Part shown: positions 1 through 31,600 of the stretch, in pieces
Numbering within the stretch: position 1 is the stretch's first letter
Layout of the letters: each line of letters begins with the position of its first letter
Notes under the pieces: generated by a model
Told to the model about the DNA's origin: nothing
Databases searched by the model: none
Seen by the model: the letters and a program-made list of their open reading frames with translations, nothing else
Source: a virus
Length of the DNA stretch: 64,000 nt
Virus record (IMG/VR): IMGVR_UViG_3300037346_000220
Location: 32,001-96,000 of that record
Direction: 5' to 3' (one strand)
Translations under genes and position numbers: made by a program

Positions 1-188
1 ACATTTATTATTTCAACGTTGATAGCGCCTAGCAAGCTAAAAGAATTACCAAGGCCCATAGCCATTATGTCTTCCGCTGTATTCTCCCTGACGTAGTCTA
101 TCTGGTCCTCTGGAGTAAGCTCGCTAAGAACCTCATCCTCATCCACAAAGTATTCAAAAACAATACTAGCTCTTATAACCTTACTCAT
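1..188 (-). CDS. hypothetical acidic early protein, runs off left edge (MSKVIRASIVFEYFVDEDEV...)
   Basis: Hand-translated; ATGA overlap with stop of upstream ORF; no stop before position 1. Confidence 0.7.
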   Translation of the reverse strand, partial: MSKVIRASIVFEYFVDEDEVLSELTPEDQIDYVRENTAEDIMAMGLGNSFSLLGAINVEIIN

Positions 189-307
189 AACCCTAGCTCC
201 TCAATAGCCTGAACAGCCATATGAGTATCCATCATACCCTCAAGGCCCAATTCATCTCTAAGATACTCACAGGTATCGTACACCCCTTGCCAGTATTCAA
301 GATTCAT
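185..307 (-). CDS. 40-aa hypothetical (MNLEYWQGVYDTCEYLRDELG...)
   Basis: Hand-translated; overlaps neighbours in a coupled chain; GGAGG upstream. Confidence 0.65.
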   Translation of the reverse strand: MNLEYWQGVYDTCEYLRDELGLEGMMDTHMAVQAIEELGL

Positions 308-392
308 CTTCATCCTCCAGGGTATCGTTATTAGCTATAACTGGCATACTAAAGAAATTAGTCCAGGTAGTGCCCATAGTTACTTCACTCAT
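297..392 (-). CDS. 31-aa hypothetical (MSEVTMGTTWTNFFSMPV...)
   Basis: Hand-translated; ATGAGTGA overlap with upstream stop; GAGG upstream. Confidence 0.55.
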   Translation of the reverse strand: MSEVTMGTTWTNFFSMPVIANNDTLEDEDES

Positions 393-549
393 CTTCATCC
401 TCTTCCAATTCTTTTACAGTAATGTCCTCTACCTGACCAGTATACTTATAGTCCTCATAGTCCCAACCCTGTTTCTCTGCTGCCGCATAGTCCTCAGCCT
501 CTACTTCATAGGTGTAAGATACTTCTACTGTAACTTCATAGTTTGGCAT
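385..549 (-). CDS. 54-aa acidic hypothetical (MPNYEVTVEVSYTYEVEAEDYAAAEKQGW...)
   Basis: Hand-translated; TAATG coupling to upstream ORF; YEV-EA-xx-xA pattern common in small phage proteins. Confidence 0.75.
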   Translation of the reverse strand: MPNYEVTVEVSYTYEVEAEDYAAAEKQGWDYEDYKYTGQVEDITVKELEEDEDE

Positions 550-746
550 TAGTCTTCCCATTCTGATAGGTCTTCGTGTCCCTTTAGTATAGCAACGGCA
601 TACGACATTTTATCGCTGTCGGCTAGGGTGTCAAGAACACCCCACTGGTCTTCGGTTAGCTGGTCATAAGAAAAGGTAAGCAGCATGCCACTACCGTAGT
701 TGCCATCTTCTGAAACGTATGATTCTGGTCTGAGTGCATAGGTCAT
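549..746 (-). CDS. 65-aa hypothetical early protein (MTYALRPE...)
   Basis: ORF track; start moved to ATG 746, which lies downstream of promoter 776-797. Confidence 0.75.
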   Translation of the reverse strand: MTYALRPESYVSEDGNYGSGMLLTFSYDQLTEDQWGVLDTLADSDKMSYAVAILKGHEDLSEWED

Positions 747-775
747 TGGGGGGTCTCTCTTTCTTTGATAAATCA

Positions 776-797
776 ATACTACCATAGGGGTCAGACA
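776..797 (-). promoter_or_regulatory. PafBC/RecA-NDp-like promoter 1
   Basis: TGTCTG-ACCCCTATGG-TAGTAT; TTGCAT -35 also present (18-nt spacer). Confidence 0.8.
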
Positions 798-933
798 TTA
801 TGCAAGCTACTTTTGGGAGTTTTTTCTAGCTATCTTAATAGGTTATTTATGTTAGTAGATATATTTTAGAATGTCCTGGCGATCGACCACACTCTACCCC
901 CAGTGTCAAACTGAGGGCAGGCGTGTCGTGAAA

Positions 934-1929
934 TTAGGCGTTTGCCAAAACCAACTGAAGCAAACGGTTTTTCTCTGCATTTATCATTGGGTCAAAGCCA
1001 GAAGCGGAAGCCAAGATAGACTCATTGGAACCACCACGAGCTGTGCGATACCAATCCAAACGTTCTGTCATAGCATTGAAAGCACCCCAAGCGGTTCCTG
1101 AAATAGTGTTGTTATAGTCACCCACATAAATCGCTTGGATAAGGTCAACCTTATTTCCATACTTCTTGAATGAACCCTTCTTGTCCTCGCCAACTGGGGC
1201 AGGGTATGCTAGAGCAACAATCTTGTCAAACTTATCCTTAGAGATAGTCTGCTCAATCATCTGCTTAGCCATGATGTCAAATTCATCCATGTATTTGTTA
1301 GCTAGGCCAAGAGCTTCTCTGGCTTGCTGAACCTTGCCAGAAGCGGTTGCTGTATGCCTAATCTTGAAGGACTGCTTAGCCTTACCCTTTAGGGCAACGT
1401 TCAAGGTGTTAGAGCATACAACACGAACTGGAGTAATAGAAGCTTGGATGGCAACTGAACCATCGTGGCTAGTGTTGATTAGTAAATACGTGTTGACTTT
1501 ATCGCCTACACCATTAGGGTCTAACACTGTCTGACGCTCCAAGGCTAGAGAACCGAATACTTGACGGCCACCTTTGATAGAGCCAGCTGTCTCCCAACGT
1601 CCTCCACCATCCAACATTAGGTCTCCAAAGTCAAACAAATCTTCGTTCTGCAATGGAACATAACGCTCACCAACAACGCCTAGAACATCGTTCTGCTCTT
1701 TGTCAAAAGGGTTGGTGCGTGTAACAAAAGAAAAGCTCTTGTCACTTGCAAAGCCTTCAGGAATTGCAACATCTTCTAGACGGACGTTCCAATCTGAAAG
1801 GTGTGCTAGGTCTAGCATTTCCTTAGTTGTAACTTCCTCATCAAATACGGTTCCCAATCCATGCCATGCAGGCTGACGTAGGGATGCGAATGCGGTCTGG
1901 CCATTTACTGTTTCAATTTCGTGCGACAT
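934..1929 (-). CDS. DUF932 / phage-plasmid TIGR03299-like protein
   Basis: MSHEIE..., PAWHGLG, ETAGSIKGGRQVF, NTSHDGS, TPVRVVCSNTL motifs typical of the family. Confidence 0.85.
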   Translation of the reverse strand: MSHEIETVNGQTAFASLRQPAWHGLGTVFDEEVTTKEMLDLAHLSDWNVRLEDVAIPEGFASDKSFSFVTRTNPFDKEQNDVLGVVGERYVPLQNEDLFDFGDLMLDGGGRWETAGSIKGGRQVFGSLALERQTVLDPNGVGDKVNTYLLINTSHDGSVAIQASITPVRVVCSNTLNVALKGKAKQSFKIRHTATASGKVQQAREALGLANKYMDEFDIMAKQMIEQTISKDKFDKIVALAYPAPVGEDKKGSFKKYGNKVDLIQAIYVGDYNNTISGTAWGAFNAMTERLDWYRTARGGSNESILASASGFDPMINAEKNRLLQLVLANA

Positions 1930-1960
1930 AAGGGGTCTTCTCTCTTTGTTTGATAGTACA

Positions 1961-1982
1961 ACTATACACTAGGGGGCTGACA
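1961..1982 (-). promoter_or_regulatory. PafBC/RecA-NDp-like promoter 2
   Basis: TGTCAG-CCCCCTAGTG-TATAGT; TTGATA -35 with 17-nt spacer. Confidence 0.8.
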
Positions 1983-2092
1983 TTATCAAGGTCTTAATGC
2001 ACCTTCTTAAAGGGTTTTATGTAACAGTTAGATAACGAAACGCTCGAGCACAGCGAACCCCCAGGTGTCAACCCAGGGGATCAGCGTGTTGG

Positions 2093-2596
2093 CTATGCTT
2101 TTTCTAAAGTGAACGCCCAAACATAGTCATCGTTGGTTAGTCCTGCCTGTATCTCATCAAAGGTGAGAACGAGGGTAATTCCTTCATAGGTAGAAACAAA
2201 GGTTCTGTTATCTAAATTGAGGGTATAGATACCTTCACACATTAGCTCATCAAACTCAAACTCTAGGTCTAGAACAATAGGCAACATTCCATCACTAGTA
2301 GCAATCACTTCTAGAATGTCTGCGCAAGTGTTTCTTGACATAGTAGGCCAGAGCTTTTCAAACTCTTTATTGTCAAGATTTGCTTTCTCAATCCTAGCAA
2401 TTTCTAACTCCCAGACTGTATCACTCATTGTGTATAGGTTGTCAATGTTATGGGTTAGTAGTTCAATCATCTCAGGGTTACGGATAAAGTTTAGAACGGT
2501 AACGCCCGATCCAGCAGGGTAGCCATCCCATTGTCCATACTGAGAAACTACTGTGTTGCCATCTTTGATTACCTTAGTTATGTTGCGTGTTCCCAT
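2093..2596 (-). CDS. conserved phage hypothetical (MGTR...YxQWDGYP motif)
   Basis: ORF track; recurrent phage N-terminal motif; own promoter upstream. Confidence 0.75.
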   Translation of the reverse strand: MGTRNITKVIKDGNTVVSQYGQWDGYPAGSGVTVLNFIRNPEMIELLTHNIDNLYTMSDTVWELEIARIEKANLDNKEFEKLWPTMSRNTCADILEVIATSDGMLPIVLDLEFEFDELMCEGIYTLNLDNRTFVSTYEGITLVLTFDEIQAGLTNDDYVWAFTLEKA

Positions 2597-2627
2597 TTGG
2601 GATACCTACTTCCTTGGTTATACATAC

Positions 2628-2649
2628 AGACTAGCATTGGGGTCAGACA
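2628..2649 (-). promoter_or_regulatory. PafBC/RecA-NDp-like promoter 3
   Basis: TGTCTG-ACCCCAATGC-TAGTCT; no canonical -35. Confidence 0.8.
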
Positions 2650-2709
2650 CTTTAGGGTGAGCAGTTTACCTAGACTTGCTCAGGTCATTCTCCCTAAACC
2701 TTTGCAGAT

Positions 2710-3156
2710 TTATAGGAACTCTATCAACGCCCCATAGGTTGAGCCAGATACTTCCTCTTGGGTGGTCATACGCAATACCTTGAGGTTTTTCTCTAGCATC
2801 TCTTTTGGAGAGTAGTGGTCACGACCATACCAAGTTCTGCGGTTAGGCTCTTGTGGCTGTTGTGGCATCTCAGGCAATCCAGCTACCGCACTTGGCTTGA
2901 ACTCAATCTGAATACGATTATCTCCATAGGTAACAACACGAATTGGAGCGTCATACTCATAGCTAATGGTATCTTTATTCAACATAACTTTGCTAATTGC
3001 AACAGCTAGGTCTATGCGATACTGCTCTTTGTCCACCTCATACTTTGCCAAGTCATCTGCATAGCTTTCAACTGATGCGTCAATGCTTGCAATCTTTGCT
3101 TCAATTTCTGCGATTAGGAGAGCTGTTGGAATCTTTACGGAAATACTTCTAGCCAT
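2710..3156 (-). CDS. hypothetical coiled-coil early protein
   Basis: ORF track; promoter 4 upstream. Confidence 0.75.
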   Translation of the reverse strand: MARSISVKIPTALLIAEIEAKIASIDASVESYADDLAKYEVDKEQYRIDLAVAISKVMLNKDTISYEYDAPIRVVTYGDNRIQIEFKPSAVAGLPEMPQQPQEPNRRTWYGRDHYSPKEMLEKNLKVLRMTTQEEVSGSTYGALIEFL

Positions 3157-3200
3157 TATAGGGGGTCTGCTTTCATTAGGGGTTATTTGTTTACTTAGTA

Positions 3201-3222
3201 ATTATACAATAGGGGTAGGACA
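3201..3222 (-). promoter_or_regulatory. PafBC/RecA-NDp-like promoter 4
   Basis: TGTCCT-ACCCCTATTG-TATAAT. Confidence 0.75.
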
Positions 3223-3223
3223 T

Positions 3224-3268
3224 TTTAGGGGGAATAGTGAAAGGATTAGAAACTCTACTCCCCCTAAA
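3224..3268 (-). ncRNA. RNA hairpin A with conserved 17-nt loop AGUUUCUAAUCCUUUCA
   Basis: 14-bp stem (one G-U on minus strand); same loop as 5597-5637. Confidence 0.55.
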
Positions 3269-3275
3269 GACTATA

Positions 3276-3428
3276 CTACTTTACAGTAGTCCAGCGAGGC
3301 TGTCCAGATACATCTAGACGAACACGACTTGTGCCGTTCTTGTTCTGAATAACTTCCTGAATTACTCCAGTAACGCCTGACTTAGCTGTGGTGAACTGTG
3401 AGCCAACAGTTAGAGTTGCATTTGACAT
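3276..3428 (-). CDS. 50-aa small beta-rich (KOW/SH3-like) protein (MSNATLTVGSQFTTAKSG...)
   Basis: Internal ATG of track ORF 3276..3578; lies downstream of promoter 3495-3523. Confidence 0.75.
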   Translation of the reverse strand: MSNATLTVGSQFTTAKSGVTGVIQEVIQNKNGTSRVRLDVSGQPRWTTVK

Positions 3429-3494
3429 AATTGCTTCCGTTCTCGCCCCAGAGGGACTATCTTGATTAGTTACCAACGACTTGTTGATAGCTCT

Positions 3495-3523
3495 ATTGTA
3501 GCTGAAATTAGAGTGAAAGTCAA
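3495..3523 (-). promoter_or_regulatory. SigA-type promoter
   Basis: TTGACT-17-TACAAT; RTAAC pair at 3533/3544 just upstream; second promoter TTGCAA-17-TATAGT at 3587-3615. Confidence 0.7.
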
Positions 3524-3697
3524 GCCTATTTGGTAACAAAATGATAACAACTTCTAGGCTTTGTCTTCTCTTTTCCAACTACTATAACTATACCTGAGTG
3601 GGATAGGAATTGCAACTCTTAAACCTACAAAGATTTACGAGATTTTTTGTAGGTATCTTAATTGACTTTATAGGATCTGTGCGCTCGGCCACAGAAG

Positions 3698-3726
3698 AAA
3701 AAAACAGCCAGTTTCTCGTCATGGCC
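3698..3726 (-). terminator. probable intrinsic terminator
   Basis: GGCCA-11nt-TGGCT then G and a T run, downstream of stop at 3742. Confidence 0.5.
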
Positions 3727-3741
3727 AGGACGTCAGTACCC

Positions 3742-3888
3742 CTACTGAAGCTTAGTGTTTTCTATTCTCATGAAGTCTAGTTGACGTTGCATATCAACGA
3801 TGCTTTCCTCTAGGCTAACTATCTTATTGCGCATGCTTAGCAATGCTGGGTGTTGACTCTCTGTCCTAATTGGAGTTACCTTATTCAT
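3742..3888 (-). CDS. 48-aa coiled-coil peptide (MNKVTPIRTESQHPALLSMRNKIVSLEESI...)
   Basis: Hand-translated; ATGAATAA overlap with upstream stop; AGAGG RBS. Confidence 0.65.
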   Translation of the reverse strand: MNKVTPIRTESQHPALLSMRNKIVSLEESIVDMQRQLDFMRIENTKLQ

Positions 3889-4405
3889 GTGAACCTCTCT
3901 TTACTATCCAGATAATTGCTTGGGTTGTTCTAGGTGTTAGGCCATGGATTTTGGCAACTGCCTTTACTGCTTGGCTAAGTGCATGATAGTCACTTTGGCT
4001 AGGTGAGGACTTGGCGTGGTCAACGGCTTTCATCATCCAGACGTCTATCACAACTTGCTCTTGGTCACCTGCAATAGCCTTGGCGAATGCATTAGTCTTT
4101 AGGCCTTTTAGGGCACTAAACCCGTCAGTGAGTGATTTCTCTGCCATACGGATGTTATTCTTTAGGCAGCGGACTTCTTGCCCTAGTGAGAATGCTATGG
4201 CCCTAGCGATGTTCATGGTCCAACGCTCACGAGGTGAGAATGAACTTACAACACTGGCCCCTATCTCTAAGGTGGTCCCTAAGTTTATTGCCACTTTTTC
4301 AGCAATGCGCTCAGCGTCCATATACCAAATTGCTGCCTGCTCAACTTGGCCTAGGGTTGCTTGGGATACAAGCTTGGAGTATTTCTCAATGTAAGTTTCT
4401 AGCAT
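3881..4405 (-). CDS. conserved phage protein with HhH-glycosylase-like motifs
   Basis: WY..A, SPRERW..N, GLKTNAF..AI.GD..VVIDVWM, QAIIW motifs. Confidence 0.6.
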   Translation of the reverse strand: MLETYIEKYSKLVSQATLGQVEQAAIWYMDAERIAEKVAINLGTTLEIGASVVSSFSPRERWTMNIARAIAFSLGQEVRCLKNNIRMAEKSLTDGFSALKGLKTNAFAKAIAGDQEQVVIDVWMMKAVDHAKSSPSQSDYHALSQAVKAVAKIHGLTPRTTQAIIWIVKRGSHE

Positions 4406-4440
4406 TTGGGGTAAGTCTCTCTGTAGGGGTTATAGATTAT

Positions 4441-4469
4441 AGCTTAGCATGTTCTCAGCTGTTTGTCAA
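4441..4469 (-). promoter_or_regulatory. SigA-type promoter
   Basis: TTGACA-17-TAAGCT with TG extension. Confidence 0.75.
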
Positions 4470-4735
4470 CTATCTTCCGAACACCATGCGCCTAAGTAGT
4501 ATGAACTAATAACATTCCTGGCAGACACCTCGGTATTGCCCCTAAAGCTTACACCTTGCGGCAACGGTATTAGTTTATCTAATTCATCTTCCCAATAAGC
4601 GTCAATAGCTGTTATTGCCGTAGGTATCATCTGACGTGGAATTGGAGGATAGCAATTGCTACTAAAGTGGATAGCTATCTGATTCTCTAGGCTCATGCCT
4701 TGCTCTTGCAATTCTATCGCTGTCATCATTCCCAT
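4466..4735 (-). CDS. hypothetical (H..SNCYPP motif)
   Basis: ORF track; TAATG coupling. Confidence 0.75.
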   Translation of the reverse strand: MGMMTAIELQEQGMSLENQIAIHFSSNCYPPIPRQMIPTAITAIDAYWEDELDKLIPLPQGVSFRGNTEVSARNVISSYYLGAWCSEDS

Positions 4736-4929
4736 TATTTTACCTCCACGTATTCCATAGCAACCCTCAAAAGGTTGTCGTAGTCTCCCGACATACTGGC
4801 AGAAAGATACTCGCTAATTTCTGAAGCGGTTGCTCCAGACTTTTTTAGTGCAGACTTTACCGCTCCCATTACCGCAAAAGCGTTTCCATCACGACCTGTT
4901 AGTTGAACTACTACATCGTATTTTGCCAT
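4735..4929 (-). CDS. conserved small phage protein (L.G.DGNAF.VMG...GDYD.LL)
   Basis: Motif recurrent in actinophages; GAAAGGA RBS. Confidence 0.8.
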   Translation of the reverse strand: MAKYDVVVQLTGRDGNAFAVMGAVKSALKKSGATASEISEYLSASMSGDYDNLLRVAMEYVEVK

Positions 4930-4954
4930 TTTGTATCCTTTCGGTTATAAAATA

Positions 4955-4976
4955 ATCATACATCAGGGGTCAGACA
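4955..4976 (-). promoter_or_regulatory. PafBC/RecA-NDp-like promoter 5
   Basis: TGTCTG-ACCCCTGATG-TATGAT. Confidence 0.8.
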
Positions 4977-4982
4977 TTTTAC

Positions 4983-5129
4983 CTAGAACTCTAGGTCATA
5001 TTTCAAGAGCACCCTATCAAAAGCATCATCAAGTTTCTGAAGATCCGCCATCAAAGCATCACGCTGTTCTCGATCCATTTCTTTCACTTCACTCATTGGA
5101 AGTGACATTTCCCAAAATTCTTTTCTCAT
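4983..5129 (-). CDS. 48-aa hypothetical (MRKEFWEMSLPMSEVKEMDREQRDALMADL...)
   Basis: Hand-translated; ATGA overlap; AGGAG RBS. Confidence 0.65.
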   Translation of the reverse strand: MRKEFWEMSLPMSEVKEMDREQRDALMADLQKLDDAFDRVLLKYDLEF

Positions 5130-5326
5130 TTTATCTCCTCTAGGGTAAAGTCATACTCATCGCCACCTGCGAGAGCGTGTTCAAACTCATTTTGATTACT
5201 AAAATAAAAGAAGATACCGTCATCATCCTCACCCTCAGTCCACTCGGCATCAATAGCGACGGTAGCTAGGAAACCCTCTCCTGGAGTATCTTTCCATTCA
5301 ACCAATACCCTCTTGTATTCAGTCAT
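5126..5326 (-). CDS. 66-aa acidic hypothetical (MTEYKRVLVEWKD...)
   Basis: Internal ATG of track ORF; AGGAG RBS; overlap with upstream stop. Confidence 0.7.
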   Translation of the reverse strand: MTEYKRVLVEWKDTPGEGFLATVAIDAEWTEGEDDDGIFFYFSNQNEFEHALAGGDEYDFTLEEIK

Positions 5327-5486
5327 CACTCCTGCTTTCTTTGATAGCTTTATAGTTGTTAGACTGCCTTGAACCCTTATACTTATCAACTTGCGCTACT
5401 AGGTGAGGGTTCTTCAGTATGTTGTAAAATAACGCCTGGCTTTCAACCTTGCGCCTTGCCTCGTTGTATCTTCCTAATTTGCTCAT
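5319..5486 (-). CDS. 55-aa basic leaderless protein (MSKLGRYNEARRKVESQALF...)
   Basis: Hand-translated; ATG 6 nt after the -10 of promoter 6. Confidence 0.7.
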   Translation of the reverse strand: MSKLGRYNEARRKVESQALFYNILKNPHLVAQVDKYKGSRQSNNYKAIKESRSDD

Positions 5487-5492
5487 AGTGAA

Positions 5493-5514
5493 ACTATAAC
5501 ACAGGGGTCAGACA
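5493..5514 (-). promoter_or_regulatory. PafBC/RecA-NDp-like promoter 6
   Basis: TGTCTG-ACCCCTGTGT-TATAGT. Confidence 0.8.
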
Positions 5515-5589
5515 TTTTGGGAAGGAATTTTTCCTATCTTAATTAACTCATCTTAATTAGTTGTCTAATCGTTATAAACGCTCGGGCAG

Positions 5590-5637
5590 AAAAAAATAGC
5601 ACCCAAGGTGAAAGGATTAGAAACTCCCTGGGCACTA
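5590..5637 (-). ncRNA. RNA hairpin B / terminator with conserved 17-nt loop
   Basis: 12-bp stem UAGUGCCCAGGG/CCUUGGGUGCUA, loop identical to hairpin A, then U7. Confidence 0.6.
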
Positions 5638-5690
5638 CTTCTTCTGGGTGGCTTGGTTAGATCGTTTCAGGACCTCACCCAATTATTCCC

Positions 5691-5822
5691 CTAATTAGGA
5701 GGAATAAAACTTGAACGCTTAGTTGAGAAATACTTACGCTTAGCATAGCCAAGAGTGACAAGGACTGCCACAGACACTAGGACTAAGTCTACTAGCAAGT
5801 TGAAACCATTGTAAAAAATCAT
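5691..5822 (-). CDS. 43-aa membrane peptide (MIFYNGFNLLVDLVLVSVAVLVTLGYAKRK...)
   Basis: Hand-translated; one TM helix with basic tail; GAAGG RBS. Confidence 0.7.
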   Translation of the reverse strand: MIFYNGFNLLVDLVLVSVAVLVTLGYAKRKYFSTKRSSFIPPN

Positions 5823-5929
5823 TAGTTACCTTCTTTCGTTGTGAATAGTTTATCAGGGGTATCAGACAACATTAGCTCTATCTTGAAGATTAGCTCCTCA
5901 AGGGTTTCTGTGCTTAGGCGCTCAGGCAT
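5822..5929 (-). CDS. 35-aa hypothetical (MPERLSTETLEELIFKIELML...)
   Basis: Hand-translated; coupled at both ends. Confidence 0.5.
   Translation of the reverse strand: MPERLSTETLEELIFKIELMLSDTPDKLFTTKEGN
5847..5868 (-). promoter_or_regulatory. PafBC/RecA-NDp-like promoter 7
   Basis: TGTCTG-ATACCCCTGA-TAAACT (inside the 35-aa ORF). Confidence 0.7.
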
Positions 5930-6080
5930 AACCAAGCTCTCTAAGCTCTACGGGAAAGTCTTCACCTAGATAGTCTACAGCGTCTAACACTAGCATTACT
6001 CCGTCATACTCGTTGCAGCCAGAACACACATAGAACTCTACTGTGTCTAGGCAATACACGCACAATTTCATTTCATTCAT
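5922..6080 (-). CDS. 52-aa Zn-ribbon microprotein (CVYC...CSGC)
   Basis: Hand-translated; GAAAGGA RBS; promoter 8 upstream. Confidence 0.75.
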   Translation of the reverse strand: MNEMKLCVYCLDTVEFYVCSGCNEYDGVMLVLDAVDYLGEDFPVELRELGYA

Positions 6081-6107
6081 TACTTATCCTTTCGTTGTTA
6101 TAAGCTT

Positions 6108-6129
6108 AGCTTAGCACGGGGGTCTGACA
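6108..6129 (-). promoter_or_regulatory. PafBC/RecA-NDp-like promoter 8
   Basis: TGTCAG-ACCCCCGTGC-TAAGCT. Confidence 0.8.
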
Positions 6130-6261
6130 TTATAGACAGCCCACGTTCACAGTAAATTCTTCAACGCTAAAGGCACACTTTGGGCACAGGGCGTTCACTG
6201 TGTCGTCTATTAGCAATACAGCTTCGGTTGCCTTGGCAAACTTACAAAATCCACAGTTCAT
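6130..6261 (-). CDS. 43-aa Zn-ribbon microprotein (CGFC...CPKC)
   Basis: Hand-translated; AAAGGA RBS; promoter 9 upstream. Confidence 0.75.
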   Translation of the reverse strand: MNCGFCKFAKATEAVLLIDDTVNALCPKCAFSVEEFTVNVGCL

Positions 6262-6286
6262 TTATCATCCTTTTCGTTATAGGTTT

Positions 6287-6308
6287 ATCTTAGCACAGGG
6301 GTCTGACA
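6287..6308 (-). promoter_or_regulatory. PafBC/RecA-NDp-like promoter 9
   Basis: TGTCAG-ACCCCTGTGC-TAAGAT. Confidence 0.8.
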
Positions 6309-6310
6309 TT

Positions 6311-6505
6311 TTAGGTTGCTCTGCCAGAAAGAAGATAGTCAATTTCTTCTTCCCTAGCCAAATCGTTGTTATGTTCCCAAAGCTTGTTGTGAACGGATAG
6401 TGTGTGGCTAGTCTTCCACGCCTTAGCGTCAAGATAGTAGGTGGTGCTTAGTTCCTGAGTAAATCCACAGCCGTTGCAGGTGGTCTTGCGATACATTTTT
6501 GTCAT
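6311..6505 (-). CDS. 64-aa probable C2H2-type Zn protein (CNGC...H....H)
   Basis: ORF track; AAAGGA RBS; promoter TTGCTA-17-TAGGTT at 6531-6559. Confidence 0.75.
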   Translation of the reverse strand: MTKMYRKTTCNGCGFTQELSTTYYLDAKAWKTSHTLSVHNKLWEHNNDLAREEEIDYLLSGRAT

Positions 6506-6568
6506 TGATCATCCTTTGCGTTATAGGTATAACCTATCACACATCTGACCCAATAGCAAGTCTATTAG

Positions 6569-6606
6569 GTAACAGTTAGGTAACGTTTATGTAACGTTTA
6601 GGTAAC
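6569..6606. repeat. 4x GTAAC direct repeat at 11-bp period (OmpR-family MtrA/GlnR-like box)
   Basis: GTAAC at 6569, 6580, 6591, 6602, just upstream of the -35 at 6554-6559. Confidence 0.7.
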
Positions 6607-6705
6607 ATCTATTAGTTTTGGGAATAAACTTTTCCCATCTTAATTTGGGAGATCTTAAATACATTCTTAAGCTTATTTGGGGAATAAATCTATAGTGGGC
6701 GCTCG

Positions 6706-6738
6706 AAAAAAAATCGGCAAATGTCAAGCGACACGCCG
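6706..6738 (-). terminator. intrinsic terminator overlapping a CGGCGTGTCG box
   Basis: CGGCG-TGTC-GCTT-GACA-TTT-GCCG then A and T8. Confidence 0.6.
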
Positions 6739-6754
6739 TGGAGAAATAAACTAT

Positions 6755-6865
6755 TTAGTTTATCTCGCCATACGCCTCGTAGCAATTTACGCAAGCGGTT
6801 TCACCTTCAACCTCTACAGTTGGAACGGTGTTTGAACATATTTCGCAAAATTTGAAATCAATCAT
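6755..6865 (-). CDS. 36-aa Zn-ribbon microprotein (CEIC...CVNC)
   Basis: Hand-translated; GAAAGGA RBS. Confidence 0.75.
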   Translation of the reverse strand: MIDFKFCEICSNTVPTVEVEGETACVNCYEAYGEIN

Positions 6866-6911
6866 CTTTTACATCCTTTCTATTTATTTCTTTATCTTTA
6901 TTTATACTAGT

Positions 6912-6952
6912 AGTCTATACCCTACACCCCCAAAAGTCAAGACGACACGCCG
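6912..6952 (-). promoter_or_regulatory. SigA-type promoter with upstream CGGCGTGTCG box
   Basis: CGGCGTGTCG-TC-TTGACT-17-TAGACT. Confidence 0.75.
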
Positions 6953-6989
6953 TGTTTGGCGAAAGTTCTTTATAACAAAACAGTAACGG

Positions 6990-7139
6990 TTATAGGCTAC
7001 CTAGACGGCTGGCAAAGTCTTCGTTCCAGATCCAGTTCCAGGTATAGCCTAGTGATGCAACCCTAATCAATAGGTAGGCGATGTAAGCTGTGCCTGCTAG
7101 GCAAATGGCGTATACGCTAATTCTTTTTGACTTTGTCAT
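6990..7139 (-). CDS. 49-aa membrane peptide (MTKSKRISVYAICLAGTAYIAYLLIRV...)
   Basis: Internal ATG of track ORF; AAAGGA RBS. Confidence 0.7.
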   Translation of the reverse strand: MTKSKRISVYAICLAGTAYIAYLLIRVASLGYTWNWIWNEDFASRLGSL

Positions 7140-7166
7140 TTCTTTATCCTTTGTTTGTATATCTAT

Positions 7167-7207
7167 AGCATAGTGCATAGGTGAGACATTATCAATACGA
7201 CACGCCG
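7167..7207 (-). promoter_or_regulatory. composite promoter 10 (GACAC box, -35 and PafBC-like element)
   Basis: CGGCGTGTCG-TA-TTGATA-A-TGTCTC-ACCTATGCAC-TATGCT. Confidence 0.7.
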
Positions 7208-7215
7208 AAGAATAG

Positions 7216-7246
7216 AAAAAAAATACCCCTATTGTTCTGGGGTATT
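7216..7246 (-). terminator. intrinsic terminator
   Basis: AATACCCC-9nt-GGGGTATT then T run. Confidence 0.7.
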
Positions 7247-7324
7247 CATTTCGGTAACAACACTAGCAATTCCAGCAATAGCGTTGTCATAGTCCTCCCA
7301 AGTATCAAAAGTGAGCGTTATCAT
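7229..7324 (-). CDS. 31-aa hypothetical (MITLTFDTWEDYDNAIAGI...)
   Basis: Hand-translated; GAGGT upstream. Confidence 0.55.
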   Translation of the reverse strand: MITLTFDTWEDYDNAIAGIASVVTEMNTPEQ

Positions 7325-7328
7325 TATG

Positions 7329-7493
7329 TTACCAACCTCTCGTTGAACCCAGAGCGTTAGCCATTACCATTAGACCGTTGATGTATTTGATTTCACTATC
7401 ACTAGGGGTATCACCTACGATAGACACTAGTGTTTCTATCTCTACCTCTATCTCTGATAGTGAGAGGGTATCCAATTCTTTGAATCTATTCAT
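7329..7493 (-). CDS. 54-aa hypothetical (MNRFKELDTLSLSEIEVEIE...)
   Basis: Hand-translated; AAAGGA RBS; promoter 11 upstream. Confidence 0.7.
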   Translation of the reverse strand: MNRFKELDTLSLSEIEVEIETLVSIVGDTPSDSEIKYINGLMVMANALGSTRGW

Positions 7494-7519
7494 TATTATC
7501 CTTTACTGTTTATACTATG

Positions 7520-7541
7520 ATACTAACACTAGGGTCAGACA
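7520..7541 (-). promoter_or_regulatory. PafBC/RecA-NDp-like promoter 11
   Basis: TGTCTG-ACCCTAGTGT-TAGTAT. Confidence 0.8.
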
Positions 7542-7543
7542 CT

Positions 7544-7678
7544 TTAGAATGTCTTGCTAAGCTGTAAGTCTATCCACCTAAGCCAAGTTGCACCTACTGG
7601 CTTATTGCCAGACTTGATGCCCTGTAGCACTGTTGAGTAAAACATTTTTTCTTCTTTATTCATTCTTGATTTCTTCAT
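7544..7678 (-). CDS. 44-aa basic leaderless protein (MKKSRMNKEEKMFYSTVLQGIKSG...)
   Basis: Hand-translated; ATG 6 nt after the -10 of promoter 12. Confidence 0.65.
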   Translation of the reverse strand: MKKSRMNKEEKMFYSTVLQGIKSGNKPVGATWLRWIDLQLSKTF

Positions 7679-7684
7679 AGTTCT

Positions 7685-7706
7685 ACCTTACCATAGGGGT
7701 CTGACA
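7685..7706 (-). promoter_or_regulatory. PafBC/RecA-NDp-like promoter 12
   Basis: TGTCAG-ACCCCTATGG-TAAGGT. Confidence 0.8.
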
Positions 7707-7708
7707 TT

Positions 7709-7849
7709 TTAGATGGACTCATTACCAGTTACCATTAGGATGGTGTAGCCCATCCCCTCAAGCTTAGCGATAGCGTTATCAACATTGGCTGGCATTGAAC
7801 CAAACCAAACCATTGAGTCATTGTCCTTGCTTACGAAAATCTTCTTCAT
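7709..7849 (-). CDS. 46-aa hypothetical (MKKIFVSKDNDSMVWFGSMP...)
   Basis: Hand-translated; AAAGGA RBS. Confidence 0.7.
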   Translation of the reverse strand: MKKIFVSKDNDSMVWFGSMPANVDNAIAKLEGMGYTILMVTGNESI

Positions 7850-7882
7850 TTCTCTATCCTTTATCTTTCTTTGTATAGTTAC

Positions 7883-7923
7883 ACTCTACAGGATAGACAT
7901 TCAAAAGTCAACACGACACGCCG
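7883..7923 (-). promoter_or_regulatory. SigA-type promoter with upstream CGGCGTGTCG box (first promoter of early region)
   Basis: CGGCGTGTCG-TG-TTGACT-17-TAGAGT. Confidence 0.75.
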
Positions 7924-8211
7924 ATGATTGGAAAACTTTTCTCATAAGGGTGGCACCAGTGTGCTCACTAATTATGCTTGCTTATTCACCCAGATCGTGT
8001 ATCGTACATAACTATAAAATATTCAGATATTGCTAAAAATAGATTTTTTCAGATTTAGGCGGTATACCAATATCCATCATATCTCTGATCTCCAGGGTAT
8101 CTATAACATACACAATATCCCATAGTAGATATAATCTTAATGTCTAGTAAGGATATCCTAAGTATAAACAATATATGGTGCTATCCTTATAGTAAAGAAG
8201 GAGGGGAATAC

Positions 8212-8262
8212 ATGTCAAAGCCTGAATGCAAGTGCACTAAATGTAAGTGTGGAAAGAACTAA
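8212..8262 (+). CDS. 16-aa Cys-rich micropeptide MSKPECKCTKCKCGKN
   Basis: AAGGAGG RBS 8 nt upstream; TGC-TATCCT extended -10 at 8179-8187. Confidence 0.5.
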   Translation: MSKPECKCTKCKCGKN

Positions 8263-8418
8263 GTAATCCACTCATATACAACTAAACATAACAAAATAAT
8301 TAAGGCTGCTGTAGGAGGAATGATCCATAACTCTTTGGTAGTCTTTTTTATTTTATCTACGTAATAACTGTCTAATTCGTTATCAGGATAGCTATGGTAT
8401 TTTCGACGGAACAAGGAA

Positions 8419-8610
8419 TCACTCTTCTTTGATCAAACCAAGCTCAACGAGCTTATCATAGATCAAACCATTACCATGTCTAAGCTCTCCCTGCATAGCG
8501 GAGATAACCTCATCAACCTGATCAGCTGGAATACCATTTGACCACGCTATTTCTTTATTCATCTTATTGATAGCATCAGACATCTCGTCTATAACTGCTT
8601 CTCTATTCAT
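8419..8610 (-). CDS. 63-aa hypothetical
   Basis: ORF track; directly follows 8614..8820. Confidence 0.7.
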   Translation of the reverse strand: MNREAVIDEMSDAINKMNKEIAWSNGIPADQVDEVISAMQGELRHGNGLIYDKLVELGLIKEE

Positions 8611-8613
8611 CTC

Positions 8614-8820
8614 TTACCACTTTCCCACTGGACATTTAGCTGCTAATAGTGTTGTCTTTAATCTCATAAAGCATCCACACTTTTTACATTTCTGAGCTTT
8701 ACTATTAAAGTGTTCACAGAGTTTACAGATAGCCATTCTCTCATCGTATAAGTCCTTATCGCTTCTTGGTTGCTTAGGATTAAATAGATCGGAAAATGAT
8801 ACATCATCATCGTTACCCAT
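8614..8820 (-). CDS. DUF6171-like Cys protein, copy 1 (R..IC..C...C..CGC.M..K...CP.GKW)
   Basis: Motif shared with 16520 and 28373; leaderless ATG 6 nt after TATACT. Confidence 0.75.
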   Translation of the reverse strand: MGNDDDVSFSDLFNPKQPRSDKDLYDERMAICKLCEHFNSKAQKCKKCGCFMRLKTTLLAAKCPVGKW

Positions 8821-8962
8821 GGTTATAGTATACACCATCAGATACCCCACCGCTTTCGTCTTTACTATTTTTTTAATATTTATTAGACATATGTTGGTGG
8901 GAATACTGATTGAGGATCTCTATATCGTCGAACTTAAACGCCGACTCAAATCCGCCGAGTAC

Positions 8963-9853
8963 CTAAGCGAAGAACTCATCGCCGAACTTAGCTATCGCCT
9001 CTTGGTGGAAAGCATCAGCGTATGACATATGATCTAAAATGCCAGGGTGCGCATCGGCGCCTATTCCATCCGCAGCGAATAACCAGAACTCTTCCTGCCC
9101 AGGCTCTGGGTCCTCAAACTTGTCGCCAAAATAGGCCTCTCCGTATTTTTTCCTGTATGAAAAGTAGCTGTTTAAGCGTTTGGTTTTATTTAGCTCATGT
9201 TCAAATCCTGGATCCCAAGTAGTATACATTAGTGGCACACCGACGGCTTCGAGGTACATCTCAAGCTGTTTGGCTTCGTTCATAAAATCACTCATTAAGT
9301 TCTTGTTCGTAATAACAGAGTTTACGATGTCTAATTCTTCTTGGTTCTCTAGTGGCTGTTCTGTTGAGGGCACAAATACCTCTAAACTGTATGGAGCAGT
9401 CGTCAATCTACCGTTATCAATGTCTATAGAATAATACCTGCTTACATTTGGTAACAAAAGCATAACAATTTTAGGTTTACCGTAACGATTAATGTATTTG
9501 TACACATCTTGGAAGATTCTAGAACAAGAATTTCCTGGTGCGGAAACATCAGCAAGATATTTTGCAGACAGCTTATCCTTTAACAGAGTAGACCACCTAA
9601 CATTTTCTTCCAGTCCCAATCCAAAAGTAACAGAACACCCACCAACGTAAATTGTATCCTTAGAAACTAAATTGTCAAAGTCCTCAGATCGGTATCCTTG
9701 CTTGTTAACAAAATATTCTATTGTTGCTCTAGAATGCTCAACGATATGCGAATCTCTTATCTGTCCGCCAACAGAATGAATGGGGAAGGGTATATCGAGA
9801 TAAATATCAAGCGAGTGACCCTTGTGTTTACCGTGTTTTTCCCTATGTAACAT
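8963..9853 (-). CDS. SGNH/GDSL-like hydrolase family protein
   Basis: GGCSVTFG block I, G.S block II, C-terminal D..HPG...H; leaderless TGG-TATAAT promoter. Confidence 0.65.
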   Translation of the reverse strand: MLHREKHGKHKGHSLDIYLDIPFPIHSVGGQIRDSHIVEHSRATIEYFVNKQGYRSEDFDNLVSKDTIYVGGCSVTFGLGLEENVRWSTLLKDKLSAKYLADVSAPGNSCSRIFQDVYKYINRYGKPKIVMLLLPNVSRYYSIDIDNGRLTTAPYSLEVFVPSTEQPLENQEELDIVNSVITNKNLMSDFMNEAKQLEMYLEAVGVPLMYTTWDPGFEHELNKTKRLNSYFSYRKKYGEAYFGDKFEDPEPGQEEFWLFAADGIGADAHPGILDHMSYADAFHQEAIAKFGDEFFA

Positions 9854-9894
9854 AGTCTATTATACCAAAAAAACCCCTTATACTTGTTACTATC

Positions 9895-10176
9895 ATGACA
9901 AACCTCGAGAGCCTTAACTATGTAGTAGCAATATCAGTAGGATTAGGCACTACAATCTCGATGCTAGGTCTTGCGATAAGATGGATGGTTAAACACTACC
10001 TAGAGGAAATTAAGCACGAGCTTAAGCCAAACGGCGGAGGATCAATAAAGGACCAGGTTAACCGTTTAGAACAAAGAATGGATGAAGCAGATGATAAGCG
10101 ACAAGCAATGCATAAAAAAATAGATAACTTATATACATTAATGATCGAATACATTGGAAACAAAAAAGAACACTAG
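9895..10176 (+). CDS. single-TM coiled-coil membrane protein (holin-like)
   Basis: N-terminal TM followed by ELKPNGG.S.KD.V.RLE motif typical of actinophage membrane proteins. Confidence 0.65.
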   Translation: MTNLESLNYVVAISVGLGTTISMLGLAIRWMVKHYLEEIKHELKPNGGGSIKDQVNRLEQRMDEADDKRQAMHKKIDNLYTLMIEYIGNKKEH

Positions 10177-10375: not shown

Positions 10376-10434
10376 AGCTGGTATCTAGGAGGTCTCTCAT
10401 ACCCACCCTTCTAGGTATCAGCTTTTATTTTTTT
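10376..10434 (+). ncRNA. putative stand-alone small RNA (17-bp stem, 14-nt loop, U tail)
   Basis: TGA-TATACT at 10362-10370; stem 10376-10392/10407-10423 with 3 G-U pairs; T-rich run after. Confidence 0.55.
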
Positions 10435-28607: not shown

Positions 28608-31600
28608 ATGTCTCAACCATCGAATCTTTATGCAGAAAAGATATTTGCAGAACACCCCATAGCTCTCTGGGCCCTAGAAGAGCAGGTAGACTATCTATCA
28701 TTAGTCTCTGATCCCCAAAGAGACTTCTCCCAATGGCAGCCAGTAAATTCTGAAGTCTTGTCACCAGATAGTTCAGCCCTAGACTATCCAGCTCCTTACC
28801 CACTTTCACCCTTGGGTCTAATGTCGTTAACGACAAGCACCTCTGGGTTCACGTCCTTTGGCGCAGCGTCCCCCCTGGCATATCCAGTTATGGTTGATTC
28901 GTTTTCTTCTACGAAGGACACCTTCTGCATAGGCATTCATCTTCTAGCGGTCAGTCAAACAGTGCTCTCTATTTCAGTAGGGTACACTTATGTAGACTCA
29001 GAGACAGGCCTGCCCGTTACCAAGGCAACGTCCTTTCCAGTATCGTCAAACACTAACTGGTCTTTCATATCAGAAACCTTTTCCGTTTCAGAAATAAACT
29101 CAGAGTCGTTCTACCCCTCAATCTCTGTAGTCTCGGCCCACCCAGAATCAATTACAGGTCCAATAACTCACCTAGTCTATGTCAATGGTCTTACCGTAGG
29201 GCAAAACTCAGAAGAGTTCAACTACGGGTCATTAGGAATTTCTCCATCTGGTCAAGAAGAAAATATCTTTGGTGTAGAACCCAGCGACATCCTAGTTCCG
29301 TCCGATCAGTATGGGATAGTAGGGAGAAAAGCTTACTATGTCGTAAAAGGCGGAAACAATCTAGTCTCTCAGAACTCAGGGATGCCTCTTGTTTATGGCG
29401 CTCAGAATGCTACAGTCATGACAAATTCTCAGGGAACCCCCAACCTACTGATACCAGGATATGGGTTTATGAATGATTCAGGAAGAAACAAGGAGTACAC
29501 TTTTGAAATGTGGTTTAGACCAAACTCTTTTGCAACATCTTCCACTAGAATTTTTGGACCAGTAGCCTCAAATGACGGGATCTACATAGATGGAGCATTC
29601 TTAAGGTTAAAGCTAGGAGGTTCTATAGCATCACACTATGTAGGCGATTCCTTCAGGCCTATGCTCGTAAACATTAAAACTCTAAAAGACTCAGCTTCCT
29701 TGCTTATTAACGGAGAGTCGGTAGCAACTATAACGTTTGATTCAGCCACCATTCCTCTACCAGCTCCTAAACTTGATGGAAAGAATCAAGACTTTTTAGC
29801 ATTCTATACTTCAGACGCTGTTCCTCAGATTGATGTAGACTGCGTGGCCATCTACTCATACTCAGTTCCTTCCTTAGTAGCTAAAAGGCGAATGGCCTAC
29901 GGCCAAGCTGTAGAGTTTCCAGAAAACGTAAACACGGCATACAGTGGGACAACGGCGTACTTCGATTATAACTTTGCAGATTACACAAACAATTATTCAT
30001 ACCCAAATATCGGAAGATGGTATCAGGGAATTTCAGACAACCTTGTTTTTGACAATGATGTCCTCTCAACGCCAAGCTATGGGCTCCCACAGCTAGTTAT
30101 GCAGGATGAGACAACTTATAAGAATTGGGTTTCTGAAAACTCTGATAATCAGGTGGTAGACGAAGACCTGTTCTTCAGCTTTAGCTCACCTGGCTACCTG
30201 TACTTTGAAAAACTTAGAATGCTTACTCAAGATACCAGGGCTATCTATATGGTTTTTGAAACCTCAGGATACTCAGAGAACAAGCAGGTATTGCTTAGAG
30301 TTGAAGACAACTTGACAACCAACAACTTCGAGGTATCTGTTACTGGATCAGATGTGTCTTACACCCTAAACTACCAAGGGGTAGAGACTTCCCTATACAC
30401 GGAGTCAGACCTGATAGCAAACACAAAAGCCTTTGCAGGGATAGACATAGACGGTTTGGCAAAGTATTTCGGAAGAACCTTTACTGCATTCTTTGGTAAC
30501 AAGTCACGCCTCAGTGTTTATGTTGGATCAGACAAAGACTTTGAGAGCCCATTCTCAGGAAAGATTTACTCTATAAATTTCTGTACCAACAAAAACTTTC
30601 AGAAGGTCTCAGCCTTTTTCCAAGATCCAGAGATCATTAGCACAGACTTTGTTGCTGACGCAGGAGATAACTACTTTGGCACTGACGCATCGACATGGTT
30701 CAGAACCTTTGACGGAGGCTTTGTAGATTCTTTTAGCCTAGATGGAGCAGCTAGCCACATAGCGAGTTATAGCCTAAGAGCTAAAAGCATTTTTGATAAT
30801 TACTCTATAGACATCCTAGCAGATTCTTATTGGGAAGATTACATTCCCCTAAAGCATTTTGCACAGTATGTCACCAACAGTGACTCAGGATCTTATTATG
30901 ACTTGGATTTTTTGCAGTTTAACGTGGGATACCCAGCAATTAGAAAGTTCTTAGCTGGAAGTTTTGATACGTCTAATAGCTCCGTAAAGAGTTATATAAC
31001 TTTTCAGTACTTAGCTACAGGAGCGACAGCGCAACCAGGATACTTTACAGAGACCATGAGCGCACCACAGAGCGGTATTGTAGAGCCTGGAGATAACTGG
31101 ATGACAACAAGGTACGAGGTTGTCAATGGTTCGATCATCTACCTTCCAAAGAACATAGACTTTTTAGACATAGCTTTGGTGACAAGCTTAGAGATAGTTT
31201 CCCAGGGCATCAGTTTAGATAAGATAAAGATAAAAAGCCTAGAGTATGCATCTCAGGCTTTTAATGGAGACACCTCAAACCCTATTGGTACTCGGTTTGG
31301 TCTCCCTGTGTTTCCCTACAGAAAATACAACCTTTACTACGACTATAAGACTAGGAACCCATACAAGATATACAAGAGGGGCTCTCCTTATCTTTACTTG
31401 ACGTCAGACAGCGGAATCAAAAAGGTGGGAGAGCAAGAGAGGGTCACAGACAGAGGGCTTTCAATACCAGTTAACTTAAACCTATCAGAAAAGTATAGGG
31501 TGGTATCTATGCAAATGGCAATGAGGTTTGACGAAGAATCTTTCCCCGACAAGGTCAGAGTATTTGAGGTTGAAGCAAAGAACTCATATATTAAGTTTTA

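Follow-up and report, generated by a model that had tools for sequence, protein, structure and literature searches.

The window analysed here is a stretch of 64,000 nucleotides (nt) which corresponds to the bases 32001–96000 of IMGVR_UViG_3300037346_000220, a complete IMG/VR virus genome of 111,267 bp with terminal repeats of 127 bp (in the following, G000 denotes the genome of this source phage and L-numbers such as L023 and L024 denote loci of the other sequences that were compared). The genes at positions 1–10,000 of the window are encoded on the minus strand and are mostly tiny open reading frames (ORFs), and between them lie two hairpins, H1 and H2, which are the subject of this report. 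H1 (3224–3268, minus strand) has a stem of 14 bp with one G-U pair, a 17-nt loop (3238–3254) and no U-tract. H2 (5590–5644 with the core at 5597–5637, minus strand) has a core stem of 12 bp with two G-U pairs followed by U7, and this stem can be extended with G-U pairs to up to 19 bp. The stems of both hairpins are unrelated in sequence, and the loop of H2 (5609–5625) consists of the same 17 nt as the loop of H1, AGUUUCUAAUCCUUUCA, which includes AUCCUUUC, the complement of GAAAGGAU. Exactly two copies of this 17-mer are present in the window and likewise in the whole genome, and none of 100 shuffles contained at least three loop matches with up to three mismatches.

Both hairpins fold better on the minus strand. 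For H1 the folding energy is −20.7 kcal/mol (z −3.5) on the minus strand versus −18.7 kcal/mol (z −1.9) on the plus strand, and for H2 −26.0 kcal/mol (z −4.0) versus −12.8 kcal/mol (z +0.4, no better than shuffles). The original prediction had placed two minus-strand hairpins with unrelated stems and an identical 17-nt loop at 3224–3268 and 5597–5637, where we find them, and had stated that the stems pair fully only on this strand, which is clearly the case for H2 and to a lesser degree for H1. A reading of the plus strand as RBS (ribosome binding site) of an antisense gene was rejected, as no start codon follows the loop on this strand, and an invertible DNA switch was rejected as well, as a spacer of 17 bp would not suffice for it and the mismatches are those of an RNA stem.

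H1 begins 7 nt past the stop codon of the small gene upstream, and its 3′ arm abuts the next early promoter (3195–3226, minus strand). H2 lies 52 nt past the upstream stop codon and ∼80 nt ahead of the next early promoter (5487–5518, minus strand). Except for its large loop H2 resembles an intrinsic terminator, and of the two hairpins only H2 looks canonical. About 22 nt downstream of H2 the sequence GAUUAGA (5567–5573, minus strand) is complementary to UCUAAUC of the loop over all 7 nt, including an A of the loop which is specific to G000; it could form a pseudoknot with the H2 loop, the alternative being a chance match with odds of ∼1 in 150 for a stretch of this kind.

Nine consecutive small early genes (36–64 aa; 4929–7866, minus strand) carry the motif (A)AAGGAU(A/G) 10–13 nt before the AUG. 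The motif starts at 7861, 7503, 7151, 6878, 6516, 6272, 6091, and 4940, with a weaker one at 8188, and AAGGAU is found in the start region of none of the 129 plus-strand genes. GAAAGGAU, whose 8 nt are complementary to the loop, is present at the motif/start pairs 6091/6080, 4940/4929, and 6878/6865, the copy at 6865 reading GAAAGGAUG; thus, the complementarity of the loop to the early RBSs at 4929, 6080, and 6865, as originally predicted, was confirmed. H2 ends the transcription unit which begins at the promoter at 6133 with the 6080 gene, and H1 ends the unit which begins at the promoter at 4980 with the 4929 gene, so that GAAAGGAU is present at the first genes of both units. As the hairpins close units starting with these two genes, the architecture would fit a 3′-to-5′ or a trans interaction of the loops with the block of nine genes.

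The hairpin family in related phages

A gene coding for a DUF7178 protein is located between H1 and H2, and by means of this protein we gathered 75 loci (∼1 Mb; 41–81% protein identity) from related phages of ∼100 kb. In these relatives ∼25 distinct and unrelated stems of 9–18 bp carry pyrimidine loops of 13–18 nt on the gene-sense strand. Class 1 loops end in (A/U)UCCUUUC(U), for example, CGUUUCUUAUCCUUUCU, AGUUAUUAUCCUUUCG, CUUACUUCCUUUCU, and UCUUUUCCUUUCUU, and loops of the form (A/U)UCCUACUUUC, revealed by an unbiased scan, make up class 2. Hairpin loops containing UCCUUU occur 33 times in sense but only twice in antisense orientation, compared to 1–6 per strand for reversed and complementary control cores. 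When all heptamers UCCUUUC are considered, 33 of the 109 sense copies (30%) reside in hairpin loops versus 2.7% of the antisense copies; the proportion is 0–4% for scrambled pyrimidine controls and ∼20% for other heptamers resembling the anti-Shine–Dalgarno (anti-SD) sequence (CCUCCUU, CUCCUUU).

A first covariance model (R1) missed the classes with shorter loops and MAFFT lost the register of the unrelated stems; custom hairpin scripts were used. In an alignment of 13 distinct members 98.5% of the cells are paired versus 52% in shuffles, both partners vary in each of the 10 stem pairs, and the score for covariation reaches 1.29 versus 0.31 in shuffled and 0.19–0.47 in slid alignments, whereby the fit of the alignment to the model makes the counts of pairing and covariation lean towards structure. 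Under a strand-neutral definition which treats G-T and A-C alike, the stems comprise 254 Watson–Crick, 39 G-U, and 9 A-C pairs. As G-U pairs are far commoner than A-C pairs, this points to an RNA transcribed from the sense strand. Together with the covariation of the stems this excess bears out the selection on RNA structure that had been proposed for H1 and H2. The same proposal had made itself dependent on a loop that is conserved in relatives; the loop is conserved indeed, and a second loop/RBS class and a covariation of loops with RBSs, described below, come in addition.

The 15-nt loop core GUUUCUUAUCCUUUC has 110 matches in IMG/VR, of which 21 lie in hairpins with at least six unrelated stems, new contexts included. 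Searching viral contigs for the exact 17-mer returned only a near-identical twin phage and chance matches. In 596 Gb of cellular genomes a related 17-mer had 71 matches, which equals the chance rate, with none or one of the 71 in a hairpin, and these matches give no clue to the host; as the loop of a hairpin, the element is specific to phages. The 64-kb window had no match in Rfam 15 at the gathering thresholds, including the families 6C (RF01066) and cuckoo/alpha-r14, and a permissive Rfam search of the positions 3100–5800 gave only chance-level hits (E at least 0.19; bit scores of at most 25 versus thresholds of 50–127). In a Streptomyces genome (L219, Streptomyces sp. NPDC004539, 7517–7533) the commonest 17-nt loop is, by chance, antisense to the 5′ leader AGAAAGGAUAAGAAACGGAGGGGUC-AUG, which shows that host start sites of this exact form can exist. 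The cultured Gordonia phage JonJames (L207, OR159664.1), an actinophage with GGAGG-type start sites, has an intergenic sense-strand hairpin at ∼9615–9653 of the locus (minus strand) with a perfect stem of 12 bp and a 15-nt loop CGCAUCCUCCUUCGC that holds the canonical anti-SD core; the principle of matching loops and start sites may extend to cultured phages.

Relative to the preceding stop codon, all 24 examined hairpins are found at −4 to ∼+100 nt (one at +173), and the next promoter follows after them; two of them overlap a called ORF (at least 40 aa). The hairpins occupy about four orthologous positions (A–D), H2 being at position A and H1 at position B, whereas a third hairpin of G000, H3, is at position C. 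At position B the gene before the hairpin is always the same conserved small one, with a product ending in ..RWTTVK, and its stop codon lies 7–13 nt ahead of the hairpin. At position C the loops of the orthologues belong to class 2 in some phages and to class 1 in others, and the hairpin at position D lies 10 nt upstream of an AUG devoid of an SD sequence in several relatives. Directly after the position-D hairpins we noticed a conserved motif, cgtcctggccAUGACG (L026:12149–12175, L028:4143–4170, L033:10531–10558), which in G000 also precedes a small ORF at 3722 of the window (3722–3745), where there is no hairpin.

Two features of an intrinsic terminator are differently represented: the stems are GC-rich (12–14 bp; −20.7 and −26.0 kcal/mol for H1 and H2), but instead of a short loop of ∼3–8 nt there are loops of 17 nt, and the hairpins were passed over by a terminator scan for loops of 3–8 nt. 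A U-tract after the stem is present as U7 at H2, is absent at H1, and is found in few relatives; actinobacterial terminators often come without U-tracts. In L102 a separate canonical terminator follows the family hairpin. Judged by their sequences, the hairpins as a class are stem–loops of 3′ untranslated regions (UTRs) and not textbook terminators.

Complementarity between loops and start sites

In the same phages the class 1 loop (A/U)UCCUUUC is the exact complement of the start-site motif GAAAGGA(U/A), and the class 2 loop (A/U)UCCUACUUUC is the exact complement of the start-site motif GAAAGUAGGA(U/A). The start sites, which were called by simple rules, accordingly have the forms GAAAGGAUAA.. 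and GAAAGUAGGAU.., one per loop class. Each RBS class differs from the canonical SD sequence by one base (GAAAGGA-U/A and GAAAG-U-AGG), and it is precisely at the complementary bases that the loops differ from the tail of the 16S rRNA. The expected 3′ end of actinobacterial 16S rRNA is ..CCUCCUUUCU, and therefore the full SD complement would be GAAAGGAGG.

When class 2 loops were compared with their own locus, RNAduplex returned GAAAGUAGGA(U/A)..AUG sites as all four top targets in L023, as the top three in L058, and as the top target in L025. The targets of class 1 loops are GAAAGGAUAA.. start sites: in L024 there is a perfect match of 14 nt (AAAGGAUAAUAACU-AAUG), in L040 three AGAAAGGAUAAACAAAUG sites match the class 1 loop, and in L104, a locus outside the DUF7178 set and without a match to the RecA-NDp-type promoter on that strand of the fetched stretch, a match of 14 nt is found at AGGAAAGGAUAAGAAAAUG. 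All four class 2 hairpins reside in loci with class 2 sites, and such loci make up 11 of the 75. In L031, a locus with five class 2 sites, the fetched stretch contained no hairpin; the class 2 hairpin predicted for this locus was found just beyond, at position C. This hairpin is strong and its loop UAUUCCUACUUUC is the 12-nt complement of its own site GAAAGUAGGAAU-CAUG.

Among 638 start sites, matches of at least 8 nt are found 57 times to the phages' own loops versus 19 times to the 16S tail. In the group with A-type loops each locus has 3–6 start sites that are complementary to its own loops over at least 9–10 nt, whereas at this length the canonical 16S tail has no match and reversed or scrambled loops have about 0–1. 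Loops and sites also change together. In phages with AUCC loops the base after GGA is U in 31 of 44 sites, whereas in phages with UUCC loops it is U in ∼6% and A in ∼48% of the sites, and for class 2 the pairs are AUCCUAC/GUAGGAU in L023 and UUCCUAC/GUAGGAA in L025.

The third hairpin of the source phage, H3, is located 2.7 kb before the start of the window (genome 29251–29292, minus strand) and consists of a 12-bp stem with the loop AAGAUUCCUACUUUUCUA; a U-run and a TATAAT-like box come after it. The candidate partner of H3 is the start site (2575–2620, minus strand) of a 167-aa gene which starts at 2596 and whose odd, class 2-like RBS GGAAGUAGGUAUC, read in antisense, is similar to the loop.

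Promoters, neighboring genes, and host

The minus-strand genes are preceded by a promoter-like motif, AAAATGTC(T/A)GACCCCT-N-TAnnnT, with at least 10 copies. These start at 7710, 6312, 6133, 5518, 4980, 3226, 2653, 1986, 801, and 7 on the minus strand of the window and at 30592 of the genome. The consensus of the actinobacterial RecA-NDp/PafBC promoter is tTGTCRgtg-8 nt-TannnT (PMC5656591), and at least 11 early promoters fit it in register as TGTC(T/A)GAC-N8-TAnnnT. The promoters after H1 and H2 are both of this type; the one directly after H1 has the form TGTCnnAC-N8-TAnnnT and reads TGTCCTAC. Two relatives carry the canonical promoter TGTCGGTG-N8-TAGTAT. At several early promoters an AUG follows only 6 nt past the −10 box, for example, at 5486 and 7678. 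Because of this short distance the mRNA of the gene starting at 5486 is probably leaderless, and the same spacing suggests leaderless mRNAs for the others, such as 7678. A third stereotyped type of start site, RAGAGACCCC(N1–4)AUG, was seen at the minus-strand genes 4405, 3156, 1929, and ∼770 as well as in the part of the genome that precedes the window.

The ORF upstream of H1 (3276–3578, minus strand) is probably only ∼49 aa long, and the protein atlas has it from residue 51. It is the conserved small gene ending in ..RWTTVK which precedes every hairpin at position B. Its product has no Pfam or PHROG family, and the atlas gave only a sub-threshold lead to R67-DHFR/SH3-like proteins. At the start of a block of plus-strand genes there is a strong terminator-like hairpin (10376–10423, plus strand) with a 17-bp stem, a T-run, and a 14-nt pyrimidine loop UCUCUCAUACCCAC, which is not anti-SD-like.

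The host of the phage is likely an actinobacterium, because the nearest relatives of the capsid protease and of the DUF7178 protein are largely from actinophages: the protease is closest to those of Streptomyces, Vibrio, and Rhodococcus phages (∼43% identity), and the cultured relatives of the DUF7178 protein are almost only from Mycobacterium, Gordonia, Microbacterium, and Rhodococcus phages (at most 32%). Thus, the closest cultured relatives are at ∼32–43% protein identity. A search for tRNA and tmRNA genes found none. The public sequencing runs containing the sequence are all DNA metagenomes of salt lakes, with no RNA run among those listed. In four DNA runs none of 40 listed variants (of 93 in total) falls within the hairpins, with ∼2–3 expected and hence too few to inform, and some read joints at H1 originate from diverged relatives with short sides.

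Possible role of the loops

We suggest that H1 and H2 are conserved anti-RBS loops at the 3′ ends of early transcripts which would pair with the early start sites of the phage and limit their translation, and we give this reading a probability of roughly 0.6. The stem–loops would be made as the 3′ UTRs of early transcription units, and the GC-rich stem would hold the pyrimidine loop of 13–18 nt open. The loop, being the antisense of the start-site motif (the SD sequence and the first spacer bases) of a block of small early genes, could then pair with start sites inside the same mRNA, or alternatively a stable 3′ fragment left after decay of the mRNA body might act on other early mRNAs. Once paired, a start site would be closed to the 30S subunit, and decay might be triggered as well; early protein synthesis would thus be limited or shut off, while late and leaderless genes with their other start sites would be spared. 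As the loops carry the bases which match the private RBS variants, they could form more base pairs with the sites than the ribosome can. We infer here that the RNA exists, that the pairing takes place in vivo, and that its effect is a negative one. Such a mechanism is plausible because of published precedents, namely icaR, the anti-SD-like 8-mers of Bacillus subtilis, 6C, cuckoo/CcsR, and c4.

Nevertheless, a number of observations weigh against this interpretation, and several of them come from G000 itself. Here the perfect match between loop and RBS is only 7–8 nt long. Where the relatives read UUAUCC the loops of G000 read UAAUCC, which weakens the pairing with GGAUAA, and no GGAUUA is found at the start sites of G000; GAAAGGAUUAGAAAC would be the complement of this G000-specific loop. 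The altered base is the same in both copies, which makes a host target or a concerted change possible. When RNAduplex energies were calculated for 2401 candidate starts of G000, the real loops performed no better than shuffled ones, in a set that is noisy and dominated by G-U-rich chance duplexes. Furthermore, the 5′ half of the loop, GUUUCUU, is identical to the letter across several sites and in phages whose proteins are 57–60% identical; this conservation seems to exceed the needs of pairing with variable spacers and is a hint of a partner that does not vary. In L141 an A-type loop occurs despite five GGAA sites, and the group with U-type loops shows weak extended complementarity with 0–2 sites of at least 9 nt. 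The independent covariation events, counted on a quick tree of the DUF7178 gene that is blurred by module exchange, are few (∼3–5), because the hairpin modules seem to be inherited together. Finally, part of the complementarity is expected, as the loop and the 16S tail are both anti-SD-like. For the originally predicted small RNAs (sRNAs) which derive from 3′ UTRs and occlude RBSs, this means that the position in the 3′ UTR and the complementarity to the RBS stand, whereas an energy-based target search did not separate the real loops of G000 from shuffled loops and the match is short. As to the genes that would be spared, the late genes have no AAAGGAU site; this site is found only at the nine early genes that lie within the units ended by H2 and H1 or upstream of them.

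A different partner for the loop has to be considered as well. The loop might be a sequence-specific protein site or a decoy, with the hairpin acting as a 3′-end stabilizer or terminator whose loop mimics the 3′ tail of the 16S rRNA; the loop might bind an RNA-binding protein of phage or host, or it might be bait for a factor which targets the anti-SD tail, for example, an RNase of rRNA processing or a MazF-type toxin cutting UCCUU, and the match to the RBS would be a by-product of mimicry. One invariant partner would suit the 15-nt core GUUUCUUAUCCUUUC, which does not change between unrelated stems, between sites, or between diverged phages, and UCCUUUCU is, by textbook knowledge of the actinobacterial 16S tail, common to loop and rRNA. 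That the G000 variant of the loop has no matching phage site is consistent with such a partner, and so is the small conserved gene always preceding the position-B hairpin, as in CcaF1–CcsR, where a small protein binds 3′ UTR hairpins (PMC8034643). On the contrary, this neighboring protein has no recognizable RNA-binding family beyond its sub-threshold SH3-like lead, and the hairpins at other positions follow different genes. Moreover, the loops differ from the 16S tail just where the RBSs of the phages differ from the SD sequence (AUCC/GGAU, UUCC/GGAA, CCUACUUUC/GAAAGUAGG), a correspondence which a mimic does not need, and the class 2 loops do not contain UCCUU. We regard a protein site or decoy as the main alternative to pairing, but as unlikely.

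Even less probable is a role in ribosome recruitment, in which the loop would bind S1 or the 30S subunit as a standby site and enhance the translation of the next gene or, through the loading of ribosomes, stabilize the mRNA. S1 is well known to bind single strands rich in pyrimidines, and the hairpin 10 nt before an SD-less AUG at position D would be well placed, but a promoter lies between most hairpins and the next gene, so that most hairpins would not be on the mRNA of this gene unless there is read-through, and binding of S1 would leave the RBS complementarity, the covariation, and the two discrete loop classes unexplained. An element acting as DNA, that is, in recombination or module shuffling, in replication, or as the site of a protein which recognizes AAAGGAT in either orientation, appears very improbable. 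The same loop recurs at several sites of one genome and the arrangement of hairpin and early promoter around small ORFan genes is reminiscent of mobile regulatory cassettes such as T4 PeSL; however, the sense-strand stem mismatches are overwhelmingly G-T rather than A-C (39 versus 9), H2 folds on the sense strand only, the hairpins always have the orientation of the genes, and the stem sequences, not being conserved, would be poor substrates for recombination. Hardly any weight is left for ordinary terminators sharing their loop by recent duplication or by chance. The U7 tail of H2 and the identity of the two G000 loops, which is expected after recent copying, would agree with it, but a simple duplication is ruled out by the unrelated stems, dozens of diverged phages have conserved the loop family, with a strong enrichment in hairpins, most members are devoid of a U-tract, and L102 has its separate canonical terminator after the hairpin.

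Anti-RBS loops at 3′ ends, as we propose them, belong to a kind that is already known, namely anti-SD loops and regulators in 3′ UTRs. In Staphylococcus aureus an anti-SD motif in the 3′ UTR of icaR represses icaR via its 5′ UTR (PMC3868564), and in B. subtilis anti-SD-like 8-mers located hundreds of nucleotides from the RBS pair with it, block translation, and promote decay (PMC12697547). In these mRNAs as well as in hbs of B. subtilis (PMC5737220) the SD sequence is paired with a motif from the 3′ UTR or from a distant downstream site, initiation is blocked and decay promoted in cis or in trans, and the same is proposed for the phage loops. Judged from stop codons and promoters the phage motif lies likewise in the 3′ UTR, and it is complementary to SD sequences of the same or a cognate mRNA, over 9–14 nt in the relatives. 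Unlike in icaR and hbs, the phage motif is exposed by a strong, dedicated hairpin with a large loop which recurs at several operon ends in early regions of the lytic type, it fits many genes and not one, and it exists in two classes for two private RBS variants.

The cuckoo/CcsR RNAs (alpha-r14) of Alphaproteobacteria (PMC4615179, PMC8034643) also combine variable stems with one pyrimidine, anti-SD-like loop motif and derive from 3′ UTRs. However, cuckoo RNAs consist of 2–4 adjacent hairpins with the loop CCUCCUCCC and are encoded on bacterial chromosomes (PMC4615179), whereas the phage hairpins are single and dispersed, ∼2.3 kb apart in the case of H1 and H2, have U-rich loops (UCCUUUC or UCCUACUUUC), and form no array of CCUCCUCCC; they do not fit the definition of this family. 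Pyrimidine-rich loops for purine-rich RBSs are also found in the 6C sRNA of Actinobacteria (PMC6486639), that is, in the phylum of the likely host, and RNAIII, RsaE, and other C-rich-loop sRNAs of Firmicutes (UCCC motif, PMC3868564) are likewise Gram-positive regulators that pair with RBSs independently of a chaperone. These are free-standing sRNA genes with C-rich loops, whereas the phage loops are U-rich and adapted to start sites of the phage, and their place is where an operon ends. A phage precedent is the c4 antisense RNA of P1/P7 (PMC12197685; Citron and Schuster 1990), which is encoded in the operon of its target, whose loops pair around the RBS, and in which loop and target differ together between related phages, as is the case here. 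The c4 RNA is a multi-helix RNA of a temperate immunity operon, located upstream of a single target and released by processing with RNase P, whereas the phage hairpins are simple and downstream of many potential targets. What distinguishes the elements described here is that they are phage-encoded, are located at the ends of early operons, and have two loop classes tuned to two private RBS variants; our literature searches found no published description of such phage elements.

A wider proposal is possible, and we put it forward only tentatively. Many unrelated phages might run a private translation code, in which a phage-specific extension or variant of the SD sequence at a block of early genes is combined with hairpin loops of exact antisense sequence at the ends of the same transcripts; by outbinding the 16S tail such loops would provide a self-timed, RNA-only early shut-off, and its evolution would proceed through matching changes in loops and sites. 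The hairpin family would then be the actinophage version of this code, with two orthogonal loop/site pairs in one genome.

The switch from early to late genes in phages is mostly ascribed to transcription factors and a few translational repressor proteins. If the proposed role of the loops holds true, this family would be a natural case of long-range anti-SD repression, which was recently demonstrated experimentally in bacteria, and it would offer a compact orthogonal loop/RBS part for the engineering of expression in Gram-positive bacteria and Actinobacteria, for which the family supplies many natural compensatory variants. For the phages themselves, a conserved device made only of RNA would then represent a new layer of gene control.

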